DNA of 64,000 nt, taken from positions 671,469 to 735,468 of the forward strand of contig JBBDUI010000002.1 in assembly GCA_040903985.1 (NCBI GenBank). Direction: 5' to 3'. Numbering within the stretch: the stretch's first letter is position 1; each line of letters opens with the position of its first letter. Made by a program: the position numbers and the translations under genes. Origin of the DNA: Candidatus Saccharimonadales bacterium. Its GTDB lineage: Bacteria; Patescibacteriota; Saccharimonadia; QS-5-54-17. Under the pieces are notes generated by a model. That model made no database searches. It was not told the DNA's origin and saw nothing but the letters and a program-made list of their open reading frames with translations. Positions 1 through 57,657 of this stretch are shown one piece after another.

Positions 1-70
1 GGAGAAGATCGAGATGTTCGGTGCTAGTGGTAAGGCCGTTTTAAACTAGATACTCTTAGGCTTAAGCTCG

Positions 71-122
71 GGTCTAAATCTTCAAAAATTGTCCGATCGG
101 ACAATTTTTGAAGATTTAGACC
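71..122. terminator. 52-bp perfect palindrome with A-run/T-run flanks; probable bidirectional intrinsic terminator or protein-binding inverted repeat
   Basis: The sequence ggtctaaatcttcaaaaattgtccga|tcggacaatttttgaagatttagacc is a perfect inverted repeat. A GC core stem is flanked by AAAAA/TTTTT. Its near-twin lies at 5256-5301. Confidence 0.5.
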
Positions 123-139
123 GAAGAAAATGGGTGCTG

Positions 140-900
140 GGGCGCGCGAAAGTTAAAATAAAGGCAAAGAAAAAACTTGAGACGTACACCGTGATCGGTG
201 GCGAAGGGTGACCTTCGCGTCTCAAGTTTGGCGTAAGGGTAGGACAGGTGGGGCAGCCGACGTGCACAGCTACGGTTACGGACACCGCGCGTACTAGAAC
301 GGCCGCCCCACCGGGGCAGATGGAGCGTGGCTGGAGCACACAAAAGACCGGGCGGCCTAGTATGCGGATAGCTACGGTCACCTGCCTACCGCCCACTAGG
401 GGCGGTCCTAGCTCGTCGTCCTCAGTAGCGGACACCCGGGGTGAAGGTGTCCGCTGCATAGGAGCGCCGAGCGCCGAGCCGAGGCAGATATCACCTCAGT
501 TCGGACAGTTTACCAAGAGCTTACGCCCATACTAGAGGGGCGTACCGCTGCACAAACGGTAGACGCGTGTGGCGTCCTAGCTCCTGGTTAGGTCCGGATG
601 TTGGGTATGGAAAGTGCGGGCCGCCCCACTACCTTCCGATTCGAACCTATCCGACTCTCTGAGGGTAACGACTTTCAACAGGTCACTCGGATCACGAGCT
701 TCTGCCGTCGGTACGTCGCCCCCCTACTCAGTCGGGTGCACTTTAACTATAAAGGTACTACTAAGTAATCCCGGGCAATTGGTGGATTACTGGCTATATA
801 TAATAGATGATTTGTCGGTCGTCTGGCAAGTTCAAAATCGAGACTGTGCGAATTGGCAGTCCCCGAGAGCTGTGTGACCGGTCTACAAGGGGCAGCTGAC
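140..900 (+). ncRNA. Candidate large structured non-coding RNA of unknown identity, in an ORF-free, G-rich region
   Basis: There is no credible ORF; only short ORFs with non-protein-like composition occur. GC is locally elevated, and multiple perfect hairpins are present: cttgagacg...cgtctcaag enclosing cgaagg-GTGA-ccttcg (GNRA loop), and gcggacacc-cggggtgaa-ggtgtccgc. A terminator-like palindrome lies immediately upstream. The identity is not established. Confidence 0.2.
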
Positions 901-917
901 GTGCTATCATAAGCATA

Positions 918-5255: not shown

Positions 5256-5301
5256 CATTATCTTCAAAAAGTGTCCGATCGGACACTTTTTGAAGATAAT
5301 G
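5256..5301. terminator. 46-bp perfect palindrome downstream of uvrB; probable bidirectional intrinsic terminator, a variant of the palindrome at 71-122
   Basis: The sequence cattatcttcaaaaagtgtccga|tcggacactttttgaagataatg has the same core as the first palindrome. The substitutions are compensatory (t/a becomes g/c), which preserves pairing. Confidence 0.55.
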
Positions 5302-14915: not shown

Positions 14916-16883
14916 CTAGTGGTTTACCATCTGCCACATAGCCGAGCGGTGGTAGTAAAATTCACTGCCGCTATAGGTGCTTAGTTCTATCAGGAGGCTG
15001 GGTAGACCATATTTGTCGTGCAGCCAACTCTCCAGTGAGCCGGTAGTGTCATAGGCAAAGGTGTCCCCTTGGTCGTAGCCACCCAGGCTGTGGTAGCCGA
15101 CGGCTTGACCGTACTGGCTGGCCAGTTGGCGAGAGTTGCCGGATTCATTGGCTATTACGAGTGAGGCAACAGCATGGTAGGACAGCACGAGTTTAGGGTT
15201 CTGGTTTAAGATGAAATTAGCTAAGGCGCTGGTCTCTGGCTCAGAAAGTGGAGATTTTCCACCACCCTCTTCAACTAGTTGGCCACCAGGCACAGTAACG
15301 TCTGACTTCCAGTCGTTAGCGGGAAAGTTACGGTTGAGGTCGACACCACGAGAGTTAGTGCGCCGACCAGCGGCGATACCATCGGGATTAACTTGCGGCA
15401 CTACGATGATGGTTCGGTTGGCCGGTATCTGAGAGTAGTTGGCCTCAAGTTCGGCTATCCAAGCGTCGAGGATGTACTTTGAACTGGCCTCATTACCGTG
15501 CAGGGCGCCGACGTAGATAATCTTCTCCGCTCCATTACCAAAGCTGTAGGCTGGAATCGCTCGACCGGCGATAGAGCTACCGATATTTGTGACCTGCTGA
15601 CAGACGGTGTGTGATTTGTATTCGTAGGCGGTACTACCGCTGACACCATGACGGTTTTCTAGGTTATCTGAAACTTTGATTGTGATTGGGCTACAGTGCG
15701 GCAAGAGGGCGGCGGGAATAAGGGTGACGCGGGCACCGTTAACGACTACGGAGTGCAGCGGCAGGTTCTTGCCGCCCACCTCAATAGTGAGGTGCTGCTT
15801 TAGATCTTGCTCCTCAGACAGAGGGTAGTCGAAGCTGATGAGAGGGTCGGCGTTACGAGAGACGGCGTAGCGACTAATGTTAACGTTCTCCACTTGGGGA
15901 CCACCCGAGGTGGTGAACTGTAGTTTTAGGGGTGAGATCAAGAAACCCTTATCGGTAGCCGTAATATCACTGGCATTTAACTCATAGGTGGCTTCACGGG
16001 CTAATGGCGCACTTAGAGCTATAGTTATCTTCTTATCGGCAGCACTGATATCCAGCGGAATAGATTCCGGCTCGGTCTGATCGGTGCGCCGGAGTTCGAA
16101 CTGACCAACTGAGGCGACTGATTTATTCATAGTTATAGTAATAGCATCGATTATTTGATGGACAGTTGACTTATGTTCTACCGATGCATTCTCCACTGCT
16201 ATAGGTGTAACCGTTTCTACCTCAGTGCTAAGCAGGATAGCTGCTATTTGGTCCTGGACCGATCGAGTAATTGAAATACTATAGCGACTAGCCTGCTTAA
16301 GTTTCAGCTGTTCTACCGGACAGATAAGTTCGGTCATAACCGTAGTACAGGTGACCTCATCCTCACCCACCTGCAAGGTATAGTCAGATACAGTGTCGGC
16401 TTGATCTAGTTCCAGTACCAAAGGATCGATGACGGAAATTTGCTTTAAGTAGTCTGTAGCGGTGGTTAGCTGCGGGGCTGTTTCTGCCTTAAGCTGAATT
16501 GATTTATGTAGGATGGGTAAATGCAGGAAGTGTAGCTTGACCGTTTCGGTCTGTAGGGGTGGCGGTGCGAGGGCTGTGGCGCAGCTGTCGAGTGACAGTA
16601 GTGGATAAGAGCCGATTGAGATTAAGGGGGTATGGGTGAGCTCATAAGCTGCGCTGGCCGTAGTACGATGGAGGTTTGGAAGTAGTAGCGGGTTAGTAAT
16701 GCAGCTGGGTTGGGCGTAGGTGAAGGTGAGCTGGCGAGGGAAGTAGCTCAGTGCTATCAGTAAGCCGATCGGTGCCAGCAGTAGGGCCAGTACCAAACGT
16801 GGTCGCTGTCGGGTGAAACTACGCAGGGTCTGCGGGGCTGAACGTAGTAGTGTGGTTACTAGTTTAAGTTTTTGTTTAAGCAC
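14916..16883 (-). CDS. secreted/membrane-anchored M14-family zinc carboxypeptidase with a large N-terminal domain
   Basis: The C-terminal domain carries M14 motifs (GALHGNEASS is the HxxE zinc site; also NPDG and NRNF). An N-terminal signal anchor is present. Confidence 0.75.
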   Translation of the reverse strand: MLKQKLKLVTTLLRSAPQTLRSFTRQRPRLVLALLLAPIGLLIALSYFPRQLTFTYAQPSCITNPLLLPNLHRTTASAAYELTHTPLISIGSYPLLSLDSCATALAPPPLQTETVKLHFLHLPILHKSIQLKAETAPQLTTATDYLKQISVIDPLVLELDQADTVSDYTLQVGEDEVTCTTVMTELICPVEQLKLKQASRYSISITRSVQDQIAAILLSTEVETVTPIAVENASVEHKSTVHQIIDAITITMNKSVASVGQFELRRTDQTEPESIPLDISAADKKITIALSAPLAREATYELNASDITATDKGFLISPLKLQFTTSGGPQVENVNISRYAVSRNADPLISFDYPLSEEQDLKQHLTIEVGGKNLPLHSVVVNGARVTLIPAALLPHCSPITIKVSDNLENRHGVSGSTAYEYKSHTVCQQVTNIGSSIAGRAIPAYSFGNGAEKIIYVGALHGNEASSKYILDAWIAELEANYSQIPANRTIIVVPQVNPDGIAAGRRTNSRGVDLNRNFPANDWKSDVTVPGGQLVEEGGGKSPLSEPETSALANFILNQNPKLVLSYHAVASLVIANESGNSRQLASQYGQAVGYHSLGGYDQGDTFAYDTTGSLESWLHDKYGLPSLLIELSTYSGSEFYYHRSAMWQMVNH

Positions 16884-17077
16884 GGCTACCTTCCCACCAT
16901 AATCATCAGTAATCTAATAAGCATTATACGTTAAACCGAGAATTATATAAGCTAGGGGGCGCTATTTAAGCAACTCCTGAAACGGCAGTTATCTTACCGG
17001 TTCAGGAGTTGTCCCGACGGGGTGACGTTAGGTGGCCGAAGCCACCCTGTCGTCATCCCCGTCGGGCTAGTCCTCTG

Positions 17078-17632
17078 TTAGCCGGTGAGCCGAACCAGGC
17101 GGAGATCCGGCAGGATCTCTTCTCCGATCAGTTCAAACAGTCGAACGTGGTAGGGGCAGCAGTCTTCGCCACTGGCTGTGAGGTTCTTGCAGGTGGGTTC
17201 ACCACAGCTGTTGAAGCACTTCTCGCCGCAGATGCCCGCGCCGCCACAGCAACTGAGGCAGCCGTTGAGCAGGACCAGTTGTGGACGGGGCTCAACCGGT
17301 TCGTCGAGCTCGGGTGGTTCCCACTCCATTCCTTCGAACGGATCGAAGTTCAGGAGCTCCCACGGCTCGAGGTCCGGATCGATCGGACTGCCGTCGTGTG
17401 GTTCGTCCGCATCGGCGGTGGCGCCGTAGGGCGCGAACAGGATCTCGACGTAGGTCGGTCTGGGGTCAGTCACCTGAATCCAGTCGCCGTCCTGGTCGTA
17501 CCGTTCGAAGGCGATCTCTCCCAGATCATCCTCGCTACTGATGCCACTGGTCACTTCTGCGAGTGAACCGAGGTATAGTACCTCGCTCATCCCGCTTTCG
17601 AGTTCTACCACTCGGTAAAGCGTTTCCGACAT
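17078..17632 (-). CDS. acidic Cys-rich hypothetical protein (184 aa) in a GC-rich islet
   Basis: The start was chosen at the Met preceded by the RBS GGGGAG, which gives MSETLYRV... The product is D/E-rich with a C-terminal cluster of 9 Cys (CLSCCGGAGICGEKCFNSCGEPTCK...DCCPYH). Local GC is about 60%, against about 50% in the flanks. Tandem hairpins lie downstream. Confidence 0.5.
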   Translation of the reverse strand: MSETLYRVVELESGMSEVLYLGSLAEVTSGISSEDDLGEIAFERYDQDGDWIQVTDPRPTYVEILFAPYGATADADEPHDGSPIDPDLEPWELLNFDPFEGMEWEPPELDEPVEPRPQLVLLNGCLSCCGGAGICGEKCFNSCGEPTCKNLTASGEDCCPYHVRLFELIGEEILPDLRLVRLTG

Positions 17633-17672
17633 CGTATGCTCCCCATACTGAATCCGGGACTCTCCCGGACGC

Positions 17673-17729
17673 GCTATCACTAGCCTTAAACCGGCGCCCT
17701 TAAAGGGTCAACTTAAGGCTAGTGATAGC
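17673..17729. promoter_or_regulatory. 17-bp perfect inverted repeat with a 23-bp spacer containing an inner palindrome cccttaaaggg; candidate operator in the divergent intergenic region
   Basis: The arms are gctatcactagccttaa and ttaaggctagtgatagc. The site lies between the Cys-rich gene and the ABC transporter, next to an AT-rich promoter region containing ggtataat. Confidence 0.45.
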
Positions 17730-17871
17730 AGTAGCTTAACAGAGGGCTGTAAAAGGGCTACCAGGTATAATCCTGATTATATGTTTATATCATATATATC
17801 ATATAAATCAAGGGTGTAGGTATTTCTGATACGTTTGGCAGGCTGGAGGAGGAGCGATATAATGATCGTTA

Positions 17872-18798
17872 ATGTTAATCGCTAACGGGCTTACCAAGCG
17901 CTATAAGAAGAAACTGGCTGTCGATGATGTCAGTTTTAAGGTCCGACCTGGTGTTGTGACCGGTTTCCTGGGTCCTAACGGCGCTGGTAAGACTACTACT
18001 ATGCGTCTAATATTAGGGCTAGATAAAGGGCTAGGAGAGACGCGTTATGATGGTCAGCTTCTGCGTGAGTATGCGTCACCGGTACACGTCGTGGGTTTAC
18101 TGCTCGATGCCAAGGCATTTCATCCTAAACGTACGGCCCGCAACCACCTGCGTGTTTTAGCCGCGGCCGGCGGCATAGATGATACTCGAGTAGATGAGGT
18201 GTTGAGTATTGTCGGTCTTACGGATGTGGCCGATAAACGTCCAGGGAGTTTCTCGATGGGCATGGGTCAGCGTCTAGGGATAGCGGCCGCAATTCTAGGT
18301 AAGCCGAAGTATTTGCTGTTGGACGAGCCTGGTAATGGCCTCGATCCGGAGGGTATATCCTGGCTGCGACGTTTCATGCAGGACTATGCTGCTGCGGGTA
18401 ATGTAGTGTTCGTCTCCAGCCACTTACTAAGTGAGATGGCACAGATGGCTACCGATGTCATAGTGATCGGTAAGGGTAAGTTGCTAGCTGATACGTCGAT
18501 CGAGGCGTTAATTAGTGGTAGCGGCGCTACCACTACGTTTGTACGAGTTAAGGCACCCAAGCGGTTAGAGCGAGCGTTAATTCAGGCCGGAGCTGAGGTG
18601 GAAAACAGCAATTCCGGTTTGTTAGTTCGTGGTTTAGACATCGATGCGGTCGGTCAGCTAGCCTTTAAGTTAGCTACCCCCGTGTTGGAGCTGAGTCAAA
18701 AAGCCGCTTCACTGGAAGAAGTGTTTCTAGAGATTACGGCTGGATCAGAGGAGTATAAGGCCAAGGTGGGCGCCGACAGTGAGGATAGTGATGTTTAA
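17872..18798 (+). CDS. ABC transporter ATP-binding protein (ABC-2 type)
   Basis: It has Walker A (GPNGAGKTT), an ABC signature region and Walker B (LLLDEPGNGLD). The RBS GGAGGAGG lies upstream. Confidence 0.9.
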   Translation: MLIANGLTKRYKKKLAVDDVSFKVRPGVVTGFLGPNGAGKTTTMRLILGLDKGLGETRYDGQLLREYASPVHVVGLLLDAKAFHPKRTARNHLRVLAAAGGIDDTRVDEVLSIVGLTDVADKRPGSFSMGMGQRLGIAAAILGKPKYLLLDEPGNGLDPEGISWLRRFMQDYAAAGNVVFVSSHLLSEMAQMATDVIVIGKGKLLADTSIEALISGSGATTTFVRVKAPKRLERALIQAGAEVENSNSGLLVRGLDIDAVGQLAFKLATPVLELSQKAASLEEVFLEITAGSEEYKAKVGADSEDSDV

Positions 18799-19099
18799 GT
18801 CCGAATTACGTAAGCTGCTTACCATACGTGCGAGCTACGTCATTGTGCTACTGGTCATACTATTAGCCGGATTAGATGTTGTAATGACGGCTCGCAATGC
18901 CGCTCTAGCGACCGAATCGATCGGAGCTGGTCTACTCGAGGGCTTGATTAGGTCGGCCTTAAACGCAGCAGCTATGTTTGCTGCGATCTATGCCGCACTT
19001 GTCCTTTCACATGAGTACCGCTATAACTTGATCTATCACACCTTGACCGTAGCGAAGACCCGATCACAAGTGCTAGTGGCTAAGATCGGTACGAGATAA
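18791..19099 (+). CDS. ABC-2 family permease, N-terminal fragment (frame interrupted)
   Basis: ATGTTTAA start/stop coupling with the ATPase gene. The product is hydrophobic with an ABC-2 style N-terminus (MFKSELRKLLT). It ends at a TAA at 19097-19099, while the downstream fragment continues in the -1 frame. Confidence 0.55.
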   Translation: MFKSELRKLLTIRASYVIVLLVILLAGLDVVMTARNAALATESIGAGLLEGLIRSALNAAAMFAAIYAALVLSHEYRYNLIYHTLTVAKTRSQVLVAKIGTR

Positions 19100-19116: not shown

Positions 19117-19530
19117 TTGACTGGTGTAGCGATCGGAGTAGCCTATGTCGGTATGTACCTTGGGATTGAACTGGGTGGCGGCGGTGCGGTCCCCCTCCAG
19201 AATACAGCTTGGTTAGCCGTGTCCGCTCAAGGGGCTATCTATGTGGTCGGCTATGCCTTGATCGGGCTTCTACTAGCTGTGCTTTTTCGTAATCTAGTCG
19301 TTCCTTTAGTGATAGTGCTCGTGGTCGGCTCCCCCTTAGAGGCTCTGCTGGCTAATCTTATCTCCAACCTCGAGCCACACTACTTACCGTTTAGCGCTTT
19401 AGGACAGGTGATTATGGTAGAAGGCAGTCTCAGTCCTTGGGTTGCGGCCGGAGTGTTTGCCATCTACTTGGTAGTCGGCTGGTTAATTACATGGTTTACT
19501 TTTCTGCGTCGCGATGCCGCCAGCACCTAG
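19117..19530 (+). CDS. ABC-2 family permease, C-terminal fragment (likely the same gene after a -1 frameshift; possible pseudogene or sequencing error)
   Basis: Its reading frame stays open back to 19084, which overlaps the end of the N-terminal fragment. The combined length of about 250 aa equals a normal ABC-2 permease. It has several TM helices. Confidence 0.5.
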   Translation: MTGVAIGVAYVGMYLGIELGGGGAVPLQNTAWLAVSAQGAIYVVGYALIGLLLAVLFRNLVVPLVIVLVVGSPLEALLANLISNLEPHYLPFSALGQVIMVEGSLSPWVAAGVFAIYLVVGWLITWFTFLRRDAAST

Positions 19531-41460: not shown

Positions 41461-41547
41461 GCCGCGGTGGCGGAATTGGTAGACGCGCTAGGTTTAGGAC
41501 CTAGTGAGGTTACACTCGTGAGAGTTCGAGTCTCTCCCGCGGCACCA
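41461..41547 (+). tRNA. tRNA-Leu (anticodon TAG) with a long variable arm and encoded CCA
   Basis: The acceptor stems gccgcgg and ccgcggc pair. The D-arm GGTAGA, the anticodon loop ttTAGga and the T-arm GGTTCGAGTCT are present. A 19-nt variable stem-loop and a 3' CCA are present. Confidence 0.9.
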
Positions 41548-57608: not shown

Positions 57609-57630
57609 TCTTAAGTTGTTTAAGTAAAAA

Positions 57631-57657
57631 GGAGAGCGCTAGCTCTCCTTTTTACTT
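57631..57657 (+). terminator. rho-independent terminator immediately after rpsJ
   Basis: The hairpin ggagagc-gcta-gctctcc is followed by tttttacttttc, with an A-run upstream. Confidence 0.7.

Follow-up and report, generated by a model that had tools for sequence, protein, structure and literature searches.

A GC-rich islet carrying a putative orphan gene for an acidic, cysteine-rich protein between conserved genes of a Saccharimonadales genome

On balance, we regard a GC-rich islet in a Saccharimonadales genome as a compositionally foreign block of ~770 bp that lies between conserved Saccharimonadales genes and carries one stand-alone, lineage-specific orphan gene. An ordinary orphan acquired from elsewhere is the most likely description of this gene, because it has no evident link to the neighbouring transporter. 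To judge from its sequence, the product is probably a cytoplasmic, acidic, putatively metal-binding protein and a horizontally acquired singleton. The islet was analyzed in the context of a 64-kb stretch of DNA (hereafter, the window), in which the following features were located.

16884..16964, no strand: AT-rich spacer (33–38% GC) lying between the orphan gene and the M14 gene that follows it (start 16883)
~16965–17735: GC-rich islet of ~770 bp (0.77 kb), with edges taken from a 100-bp GC profile
16971..17011, minus strand: 3' hairpin 2, a 15-bp stem with one mismatch and an 11-nt loop, no U-tract
17009..17566, plus strand: 185-codon antisense shadow ORF starting at TTG, not taken as a gene
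17013..17066, minus strand: 3' hairpin 1, ~21 bp, UUCG tetraloop, GC-rich, no U-tract
17078..17632, minus strand: orphan ORF of 184 aa, ATG at 17632 and stop TAA at 17080–17078
17639..17644, minus strand: Shine-Dalgarno-like GGGGAG, 6 nt 5' of the ATG, placed by the predicted fold in a small hairpin loop
17653..17670, minus strand: second 5' hairpin (core CCGGGA-GAG-UCCCGG), separating the long hairpin from the ribosome-binding site
17673..17729, minus strand: 5' long hairpin, with 17-nt perfect inverted-repeat arms (17673–17689 / 17713–17729) and a 23-nt loop that holds a mini-hairpin
17735..17871, no strand: AT-rich (33–35% GC), host-like divergent promoter region (sequence and promoter scan)
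17811–17784, minus strand: candidate promoter TTGATT-16-TATAAA, read by eye and inferred only
17835–17863, plus strand: promoter-like TTGGCA-17-TATAAT for the ABC operon

Based on base composition, the islet stands apart from its surroundings. The region 16965–17735 is the GC maximum of the window, and the four 600-bp segments richest in GC all fall within 16951–17700. The GC content of the ORF at 17078–17632 is 60.2% compared to 51.1% for the window (600-bp windows, sd 2.45%; z = 3.7), in agreement with the earlier suggestion, made from the sequence without database searches (hereafter, the sequence-only reading), of a local jump to about 60% GC against about 50% in the flanks. The islet has sharp edges and sits between AT-rich flanks of 33–38% GC (16850–16960 and 17700–17870), and its neighbours are core housekeeping genes, an MpaA-like M14 peptidase on one side and an ABC-2 ATPase on the other. 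When codon usage was compared with that of host genes, GC1/2/3 of the minus-strand ORF were 0.665/0.427/0.714, and GC3 lay far above the 0.524 ± 0.044 found in 21 neighbouring genes (maximum 0.607; z = 4.3). GC2 was normal, showing that the GC excess is concentrated at the third positions of the minus frame. This atypical composition, with excess GC at synonymous positions, fits a foreign origin, as the sequence-only reading had proposed, or a recent one, although no donor-like sequence for the islet was found in the collections searched. No paralog or related DNA occurs elsewhere in the 64-kb window.

Of the two strands, the minus strand makes the better gene model. Its ORF spans 200 codons from a GTG start and 184 aa from the ATG at 17632, the latter product and its good ribosome-binding site being those predicted earlier, and it was called as a gene by two pipelines, NCBI (annotated 'hypothetical') and Logan. 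The ATG and its well-spaced GGGGAG sit exactly where the 5' hairpins end towards the gene, 12 nt part the stop codon from the 3' hairpin, and only the minus frame shows the order GC3 > GC1 > GC2. When trained on the host, a position-specific model gives the plus frame a slight edge (+6 vs −6 log units for minus); we judged this strand model unsuitable here because the DNA is foreign and GC-rich. The plus-strand ORF is an antisense shadow frame, and we do not take it as a gene because its second codon position falls on that of the minus ORF, it encodes zero Met and zero Tyr, its GC1 exceeds GC3, it starts inside the hairpin region, and neither it nor the minor frames have homologs or families that we could find. 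The outcome named beforehand as damaging to the minus-strand model, a homolog-free minus ORF opposite a plus ORF with homologs, was thus not observed, since neither ORF has homologs.

The protein is a singleton orphan among the collections searched. A word-indexed search of 5.8 billion clusters returned only the minus ORF itself or nothing, and exhaustive phmmer (HMMER) over 1.84 billion representatives gave no homolog. Neither the full protein nor its halves matched Pfam, NCBIfam, PHROGs, or PADLOC, and PDB sequences contained no match to it. Tblastn against phages, plasmids, and viral contigs likewise found no homolog (an E = 10 match in an Arthrobacter plasmid lacks a conserved Cys pattern and was rejected as noise), in blastn with the islet DNA, plasmids and phages yielded nothing but chance fragments of ~40 nt, and the exact hairpin patterns do not recur in viral contigs. 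The exact protein is present on four contigs, two of 20–50 kb (one from Logan run SRR27977661) and two of 0.2–1 Mb (one being the 739-kb NCBI contig).

Both ends of the islet are strongly structured. Two tandem hairpins after the gene, earlier placed at 16969–17070, were located at 17013–17066 and 16971–17011; the first begins 12 nt past the stop codon, the second directly abuts it, and together they have an RNA minimum free energy of −68 kcal/mol (z = −9.5 vs dinucleotide shuffles). The 17-bp perfect inverted repeat noted earlier in the intergenic region is likewise real, with a 23-nt spacer, and forms the long hairpin in the presumed 5' UTR, which folds to 21 bp and has no repeat elsewhere in the window (folded 5' region: z = −5.4). 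The hairpins at the two ends show no sequence relationship to each other. A terminator scan found no canonical terminator at the 3' hairpins, and the host's terminator-like palindromes elsewhere are AT-rich with A/T runs, unlike those of the islet. Rather than ending transcription, these 3' hairpins could stabilise RNA or be recombination relics.

Such folding raises the alternative that the block is non-coding, either a structured element or decaying foreign DNA in which high GC content gives rise to a chance ORF and its antisense shadow. We consider this unlikely, yet it accounts for several observations. No frame has homologs, the whole block folds far beyond shuffled sequences (z = −7.5 and −8.4), and the ORF interior reaches z = −2.2 to −3.0 compared to a mean of −0.4 (range −1.7 to +1.3) in 12 host coding segments. 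A second GC-rich stretch of the window (50–917) contains no ORF and is equally structured. The length of the ORF carries moderate statistical weight, and long ORFs are not rare at 60% GC: the longest stop-free run in dinucleotide-preserving shuffles of the 781-bp region averages 123 codons, the actual run of 209 codons is reached in 1.4% of them (ORF length p ~0.014), and the share of shuffles with an ORF this long is 1.4–4%. Against a non-coding block stand the placement of start, ribosome-binding site, and stop relative to the hairpins, the GC excess at minus-frame third positions with normal GC2, and a fold signal that comes mostly from the terminal hairpins. In addition, no Rfam family was recognized: a gathering-threshold scan of the window returned tRNA-Leu only, a scan of 16850–17900 at E <= 5 gave only far-sub-threshold miRNA/snoRNA matches on the hairpin (11.6–20.4 bits), and no tRNA or tmRNA lies at the islet.

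Traces of mobility were looked for. No integrase or transposase was present within ±10 kb and no mobility gene in the 64 kb, the only tRNA of the window lies at 41461, and repeats at the boundaries reach at most 7–12 nt (chance level), so that neither a target-site duplication nor terminal repeats were found. An integron attC cassette was rejected as well: on both strands, the hairpin flanks misfit the R''(RYYYAAC)/R'(GTTRRRY) cores on inspection, and there is no integrase or array. Of the traits of IS200/IS605-derived palindrome-associated elements (PATE), related hairpins at both ends were not seen, and extra copies were found neither in the 64 kb nor in viral contigs. Saccharibacteria are described, in two papers (PMC10633639, PMC10187176), as naturally competent epibionts growing on Actinobacteria. 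For an acquired gene, a missing donor or homolog would be unexpected if the source lineage had been sequenced.

We think it rather improbable that the gene is instead native and vertically inherited, with its odd composition shaped by selection on mRNA structure or amino-acid content and its orphan status due to unsequenced relatives and fast evolution. This explanation agrees with the missing mobility signature and with the distance to the closest relatives, as the nearest orthologs of the M14 neighbour, through which an unoccupied site was sought, are only 35–54% identical and not syntenic (genome and metagenome contigs) and those of the ABC ATPase are at most 68% identical. Small acidic, disordered proteins, moreover, diverge fast. 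It does not readily explain why GC3 exceeds that of the neighbours by 4.3 sd while GC2 is normal, why the non-coding hairpins are as GC-rich as the gene and unlike the AT-rich palindromes of the host, or why the block has sharp edges within an AT-rich spacer.

The predicted protein is strongly D/E-rich (39 D+E vs 9 K+R; pI 4.05; net charge ~−30) and contains a 9-Cys cluster, as recognized in the sequence-only reading. The nine Cys, at residues 125, 128, 129, 135, 139, 143, 148, 158, and 159, are joined by His162 in the pattern C-x2-CC-x5-C-x3-C-x3-C-x4-C-x9-CC-x2-H. Four parts can be distinguished.

Residues 1–65: predicted beta-rich acidic domain
Residues 66–118: Pro/Asp/Glu-rich linker
Residues 119–163: Cys9-His cluster
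Residues 164–184: C-terminal tail

The Cys cluster can reasonably be taken as a putative metal-binding site. The earlier view of a metal-binding or secreted module is therefore retained for its first half and not for secretion, given that neither a signal peptide nor a transmembrane segment was detected (Kyte-Doolittle (19) maximum 1.36; N-terminus inspected). The N-terminus (MSETLYRVVELESG) is acidic, and the 184-aa protein contains no double-glycine leader. AlphaFold2 models were uninformative (pLDDT 35 for the full protein and 45 for the C-terminal 79 aa).

Under the reading we prefer, an acquired orphan gene, horizontal transfer would have brought in the gene together with its own I-shaped, actinobacterial-style terminator hairpins that have no U-tract. 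A promoter in the AT-rich host spacer would give a monocistronic mRNA, which the hairpins may insulate and stabilise. The product would be a strongly acidic cytoplasmic protein whose C-terminal Cys9-His cluster might bind a metal (Zn or Fe-S), and it would act most plausibly via a basic or nucleic-acid-binding partner; both binding roles are conjectural. Its role would be accessory and dispensable, with no coupling to the ABC-2 transporter. A bolder version is a long shot: the islet could be a hairpin-bounded single-gene cassette that a naturally competent epibiont took up from a high-GC host not yet sequenced, or from its phage, encoding a new family of acidic Cys9-His metalloproteins with epibiont-host or anti-defence roles, in which case the protein might mimic nucleic acid or titrate a basic host or defence protein, or it could be a new large structured RNA.

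It is very unlikely that the Cys-rich product, whether a peptide or effector destined for secretion or the precursor of a RiPP or bacteriocin, is exported or neutralised by the divergent ABC-2 transporter and co-regulated with it through the shared intergenic region. The orphan gene does face the ABC ATPase (17872–18798, PF00005) of an ATPase/permease pair, as had been noted, in a divergent layout with ~240 bp of shared spacer that holds inverted repeats; however, the permease is split by a frameshift in this genome. The ATPase has >8000 relatives, the best non-self matches are 62–68% identical, and, where named, these best matches belong to Saccharibacteria or Saccharimonadales. In four orthologs (65–68% identity), a single permease of 244–253 aa follows the ATPase, and the gene upstream of it encodes Dus, ADH, or an S8 peptidase and never a Cys-rich protein. 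The ABC-2 pair is thus a conserved Saccharimonadia operon with variable upstream neighbours, and a search for the same module in other genomes recovered neither a homolog of the Cys-rich ORF nor such a gene beside the ABC pair in these four relatives. Among NCBIfam models, that of the lantibiotic-protection ABC subfamily (TIGR03740) fits the ATPase best, which together with the Cys-rich C-terminus favours an export or immunity role, but its 182 bits are well under the cutoff of 309.75 and DrrA/GldA-type models score similarly. RiPP maturation enzymes (LanB/C/M, radical SAM, YcaO) and C39 peptidases are absent across the 64 kb (gene calls and Pfam), and a 184-aa protein with a folded-looking N-domain, no signal peptide, no double-glycine leader, and no transmembrane segment is atypical of a RiPP precursor. 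The two strong hairpins and the separate promoter-like elements argue for independent units. The nearby proteases, which had been counted as part of the module, are a MarP-family protease and the MpaA-like M14 amidase, both cell-envelope housekeeping types. From these results, we infer that the orphan gene has no functional link to the ABC-2 transporter, and the idea of an export/immunity or secreted-effector module is not upheld. An assembly or binning artefact in which foreign reads formed a chimeric insert can be set aside, even though a short islet of distinct composition lies here in a metagenome-assembled genome, because the exact protein occurs on four contigs, both loci that were compared are identical to the window across 20.5 kb (0 mismatches), and host sequence flanks both sides within single contigs, which is unusual for chimeras.

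In practical terms, the outcome is negative, in that a module of a Cys-rich peptide plus an ABC exporter is not there. A genuine gene of foreign origin would represent a recent gene gain in a core region of a streamlined Patescibacteria genome of ~0.75 Mb (largest contig 739 kb) and would add a family of Cys-rich acidic proteins to which no relatives are known. Lineage-specific genes of this sort are candidates for host interaction in epibionts. Singleton orphans abound in CPR genomes assembled from metagenomes, and the finding of this orphan gene changes no current view.

Several known systems resemble parts of the islet. Lantibiotic/RiPP precursors with LanFEG-type ABC-2 immunity share the Cys-rich C-terminus next to an ABC-2 pair with an ATPase weakly like TIGR03740, whereas the islet has no leader motif and no modification enzymes, its ATPase scores below the cutoff, the pairing is unconserved, the permease is frameshifted, and the protein is 184 aa long. 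Among Cys-rich families, the SPASM/twitch motif (CX2CX5CX3C) and the WhiB-like motif (C-X2-C-X5-C) each differ by one residue from the spacing at the CC doublet; the islet protein has neither a radical-SAM domain nor the WhiB G[VI]WGG turn. The dense Cys run in an acidic protein recalls bacterial metallothioneins and ferredoxins (CX2CX2CX3CP), but the exact spacing differs. No SPASM, WhiB, metallothionein, or ferredoxin profile of Pfam/NCBIfam matched the full protein or its C-terminal 79 aa at E <= 10. Acidic DNA-mimic proteins of anti-restriction or anti-defence type (Ocr, ArdA) are, like the islet protein with its pI of 4.05 and charge of ~−30, small, orphan, accessory, and compositionally foreign; they do not carry a Cys cluster, however, and the islet protein is unmatched in PHROGs, PADLOC, and Pfam and has no phage or plasmid context. 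'Moron'-like ORFan islets, which are accessory single-gene inserts gained by horizontal transfer, also combine a single ORF, atypical GC and GC3, their own stem-loops, a core intergenic site, and a lack of homologs; they differ in that here there is no prophage, integrase, tRNA site, target duplication, or second copy, and acquisition is deduced from composition alone. I-shaped terminators without poly-U, located <=50 bp from the stop codon, predominate in mycobacteria (PMC12288462). While the other terminator-like palindromes of the Saccharimonadales host are AT-rich with T runs, the islet's GC-rich tandem hairpins, which follow the stop codon by 12 nt and have no U-tract, resemble these actinobacterial I-shaped terminators.

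The islet at ~16965–17735 differs sharply in composition from the DNA around it, and its GC content, GC3 and block edges all support the foreign origin proposed in the sequence-only reading. The GC content of the minus-strand ORF 17078–17632 (hereafter, the orphan gene) is 60.2%, compared to 51.1% window-wide (standard deviation 2.45% across 600-bp windows), and the top-GC 600-bp windows of the entire 64 kb all lie at the islet. In a 100-bp profile, the block has sharp edges with AT-rich spacers (33–38% GC) on either side and, including its non-coding hairpins, breaks up a divergent promoter spacer that is AT-rich elsewhere. The GC3 of the orphan gene is 0.714, compared to 0.524 ± 0.044 (maximum 0.607; z = 4.3) in 21 neighbouring called genes, with GC1 slightly raised and GC2 normal, so amino acid content does not account for the GC excess, which is at synonymous positions.

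Features in and beside the islet
16971–17011 and 17013–17066: two tandem hairpins on the 3' side of the orphan ORF (repeat search)
17673–17689 / 17713–17729: perfect inverted repeat of 17 nt on the 5' side of the orphan ORF (repeat search)
17811–17784, minus strand: candidate promoter TTGATT-16-TATAAA, read by eye
17835–17863: near-consensus ABC-operon promoter TTGGCA-17-TATAAT (promoter scan)

The hairpins and inverted repeat are real structures, with a folding stability far above that of shuffles (z = -9.5 for the 3' region and -5.4 for the 5' region), and no further copies exist in the 64-kb window or in viral contigs. They are GC-rich and without U-tracts; host terminator-like structures are AT-rich perfect palindromes with A/T-run flanks (71–122, 5256–5301, and 57622–57657). 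The palindromes at 71–122 (52 bp) and 5256–5301 (46 bp) are long and perfect, each lies at a gene end, and they share the core ATCTTCAAAAA[T/G]TGTCCGA/TCGGACA[A/C]TTTTTGAAGAT; they resemble intrinsic terminators that work in both directions, or members of a small repeat family. By calculation, a Logan contig (SRR27977662) has one end in the middle of 5256–5301 and the other in tRNA-Leu (41461–41547).

The minus ORF is a reasonable gene model, and a better one than the plus ORF on the opposite strand (17009–17566). We prefer it because it has an ATG with GGGGAG 6 nt upstream, its start and stop lie just within the 5' and 3' hairpins, respectively, it was called by two annotation pipelines, and its codon-position GC follows the order typical for GC-rich coding DNA (GC3 > GC1 > GC2; plus frame: GC1 > GC3), whereas the plus ORF has no Met or Tyr in 185 codons and a sole TTG start abutting a GGAG within the hairpin. 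The plus ORF is read antisense with its second codon positions falling on those of the minus frame, the classic shadow frame in GC-rich genes. A host-trained position-specific model mildly preferred the plus frame, a result that we discount as carrying little weight for foreign DNA. Together with two further points, this lean keeps alive the unlikely alternative that the islet is non-coding or the minus ORF a chance ORF: a stop-free run of equal length arises in 1.4% of dinucleotide shuffles (781-bp block), and the ORF interior folds somewhat better (z = -2.2 to -3.0) than 12 coding segments of the host (mean z = -0.4, from -1.7 to +1.3).

The 184-aa product of the minus ORF occurs unchanged in a Candidatus Saccharimonadales MAG as 'hypothetical protein WD467_03720', and four contigs carry the exact protein, among them the 739-kb JBBDOY010000002.1 (GCA_040876815.1) and a Logan assembly of SRR27977661. 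The two fetched loci with this protein are identical to the window over 20.5 kb (0 mismatches); thus, an isolated misassembly does not explain the islet, and the fetched copies offer no population variation for gauging selection on the ORF. The window is core genome, encoding pentose-phosphate and glycolysis genes, UvrB, GatCAB, DnaE, NusA, ClpB-like, RadA, PBP1, TyrRS, RecG, HisRS, trigger factor, ClpP, RpoB/C, and the ribosomal-protein operon. Its gene calls include no integrase, transposase, phage gene, or RiPP enzyme, and no boundary repeats above chance were found at the islet edges.

As first described, the orphan protein is D/E-rich with a Cys cluster (39 D+E versus 9 K+R; pI 4.05; 9 Cys within residues 125–159, then His162). 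Neither strand has homologs: the minus ORF matched only itself in 5.8 billion clusters and in 1.84 billion representatives (exhaustive HMMER), and searches with the plus ORF and minor frames were likewise empty. The pattern that the sequence-only reading named as refuting it, homologs for the plus ORF but none for the minus ORF, was therefore not observed. The whole protein or its halves had 0 matches in Pfam, NCBIfam, PHROGs, and PADLOC, even at E ≤ 10, and 0 matches were found to PDB sequences, phage/plasmid six-frame translations, or IMG/VR contigs. Islet DNA searches returned chance fragments only, and no paralog or related DNA exists within the window. With AlphaFold2 run without an alignment, pLDDT was 35 (full protein) and 45 (C-terminal domain), values that do not justify fold comparison.

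A second GC-rich region, an 870-bp gap (50–917; 58–59% GC, second-highest in the window) between fructose-bisphosphate aldolase and PfkB kinase, has no called gene and only short ORFs. It has no sequence relation to the islet, no Rfam match at E ≤ 1, and no tRNA/tmRNA; RNA folding of 125–790 gave z = -6.1 (plus strand) and -6.6 (minus strand). The gap may hold a large structured non-coding RNA or be a decayed foreign insert.

The proposal that the orphan gene forms an export/immunity or secreted-effector module with the divergent ABC-2 transporter was not upheld. The ATPase (17872–18798) has >8000 relatives (best non-self matches 62–68% identical, many from Saccharibacteria/Saccharimonadales genomes). 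In four such loci, the ortholog is followed by one 244–253-aa ABC2_membrane_4/DUF2705 permease and preceded by Dus, alcohol dehydrogenase, or S8 peptidase; a Cys-rich gene precedes it in none of them, and a scan for acidic ORFs with Cys clusters over all fetched loci recovered only the window's own gene. The window permease is split (18779–19099 and 19117–19530), with a frame switch at ~19093–19096 (tblastn) outside any homopolymer, which leaves a pseudogene, a split gene, or an indel from assembly as possible readings. The best NCBIfam match of the ATPase, a lantibiotic-protection subfamily, scored 182 bits where 310 is the cutoff, with DrrA/GldA-type models fitting nearly as well. Given also that the orphan protein lacks a signal peptide or hydrophobic segment and the ABC operon has its own near-consensus promoter, the adjacency looks incidental. 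The suggested linkage to nearby proteases was likewise not supported: one is a MarP-family serine protease that scores above its NCBIfam cutoff, the other an MpaA-like M14 murein-peptide amidase, whose orthologs in other Saccharibacteria (35–54% identity) have unrelated neighbours.

Near the ATPase start, a ribosome-binding site (GGAGGAGGAG) lies 7 nt ahead of a 7-codon mini-ORF (MIVNVNR; 17845–17885 region; ATG 17862, stop 17883–17885) that overlaps, in a different frame, the start codon of the ATPase (17872). The -10 of the ABC promoter ends at 17863, and the layout could reflect translational coupling, a leader peptide, or an ABC mRNA that is nearly leaderless. The divergent spacer also holds a 24-bp AT-rich near-perfect palindrome (17784–17807; TTTATATCATAT/ATATCATATAAA, also readable as a tandem repeat, TATATCATA x2), a possible operator. 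Near orthologous ABC-2 pairs in relatives, small-gene arrays include Barstar and CdiI_N immunity-like proteins (locus L020, 7006–10439) or tandem WhiB-like genes (locus L022, 12539–12912), which shows small accessory genes of variable content clustering around the operon elsewhere in Saccharibacteria.

The islet is most economically read as a single-gene cassette of recent acquisition, which would have brought along its own terminator-like hairpins. Any expression would come from the host AT-rich spacer, and the product would be a cytoplasmic acidic protein with a putative Cys9-His metal site; a more specific role, be it titrating a partner, mimicking DNA, or sensing redox state, is speculation. 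No donor was found in the collections searched and no empty site in the relatives examined. By these searches, the feature appears to be a singleton orphan gene, a kind often seen in metagenome-assembled genomes of CPR bacteria. The Cys spacing (C-x2-CC-x5-C-x3-C-x3-C-x4-C-x9-CC-x2-H) is one residue off both SPASM (CX2CX5CX3C) and WhiB (CX2CX5C), and with no family profile matches we do not claim membership in either. Saccharibacteria in cultivation live as epibionts of Actinobacteria and are naturally competent (PMC10633639, PMC10187176). In mycobacteria, 'I-shaped' terminators (a hairpin without poly-U, ≤50 bp from the stop codon) are the predominant type (PMC12288462), and the islet hairpins resemble them in missing the U-tract.
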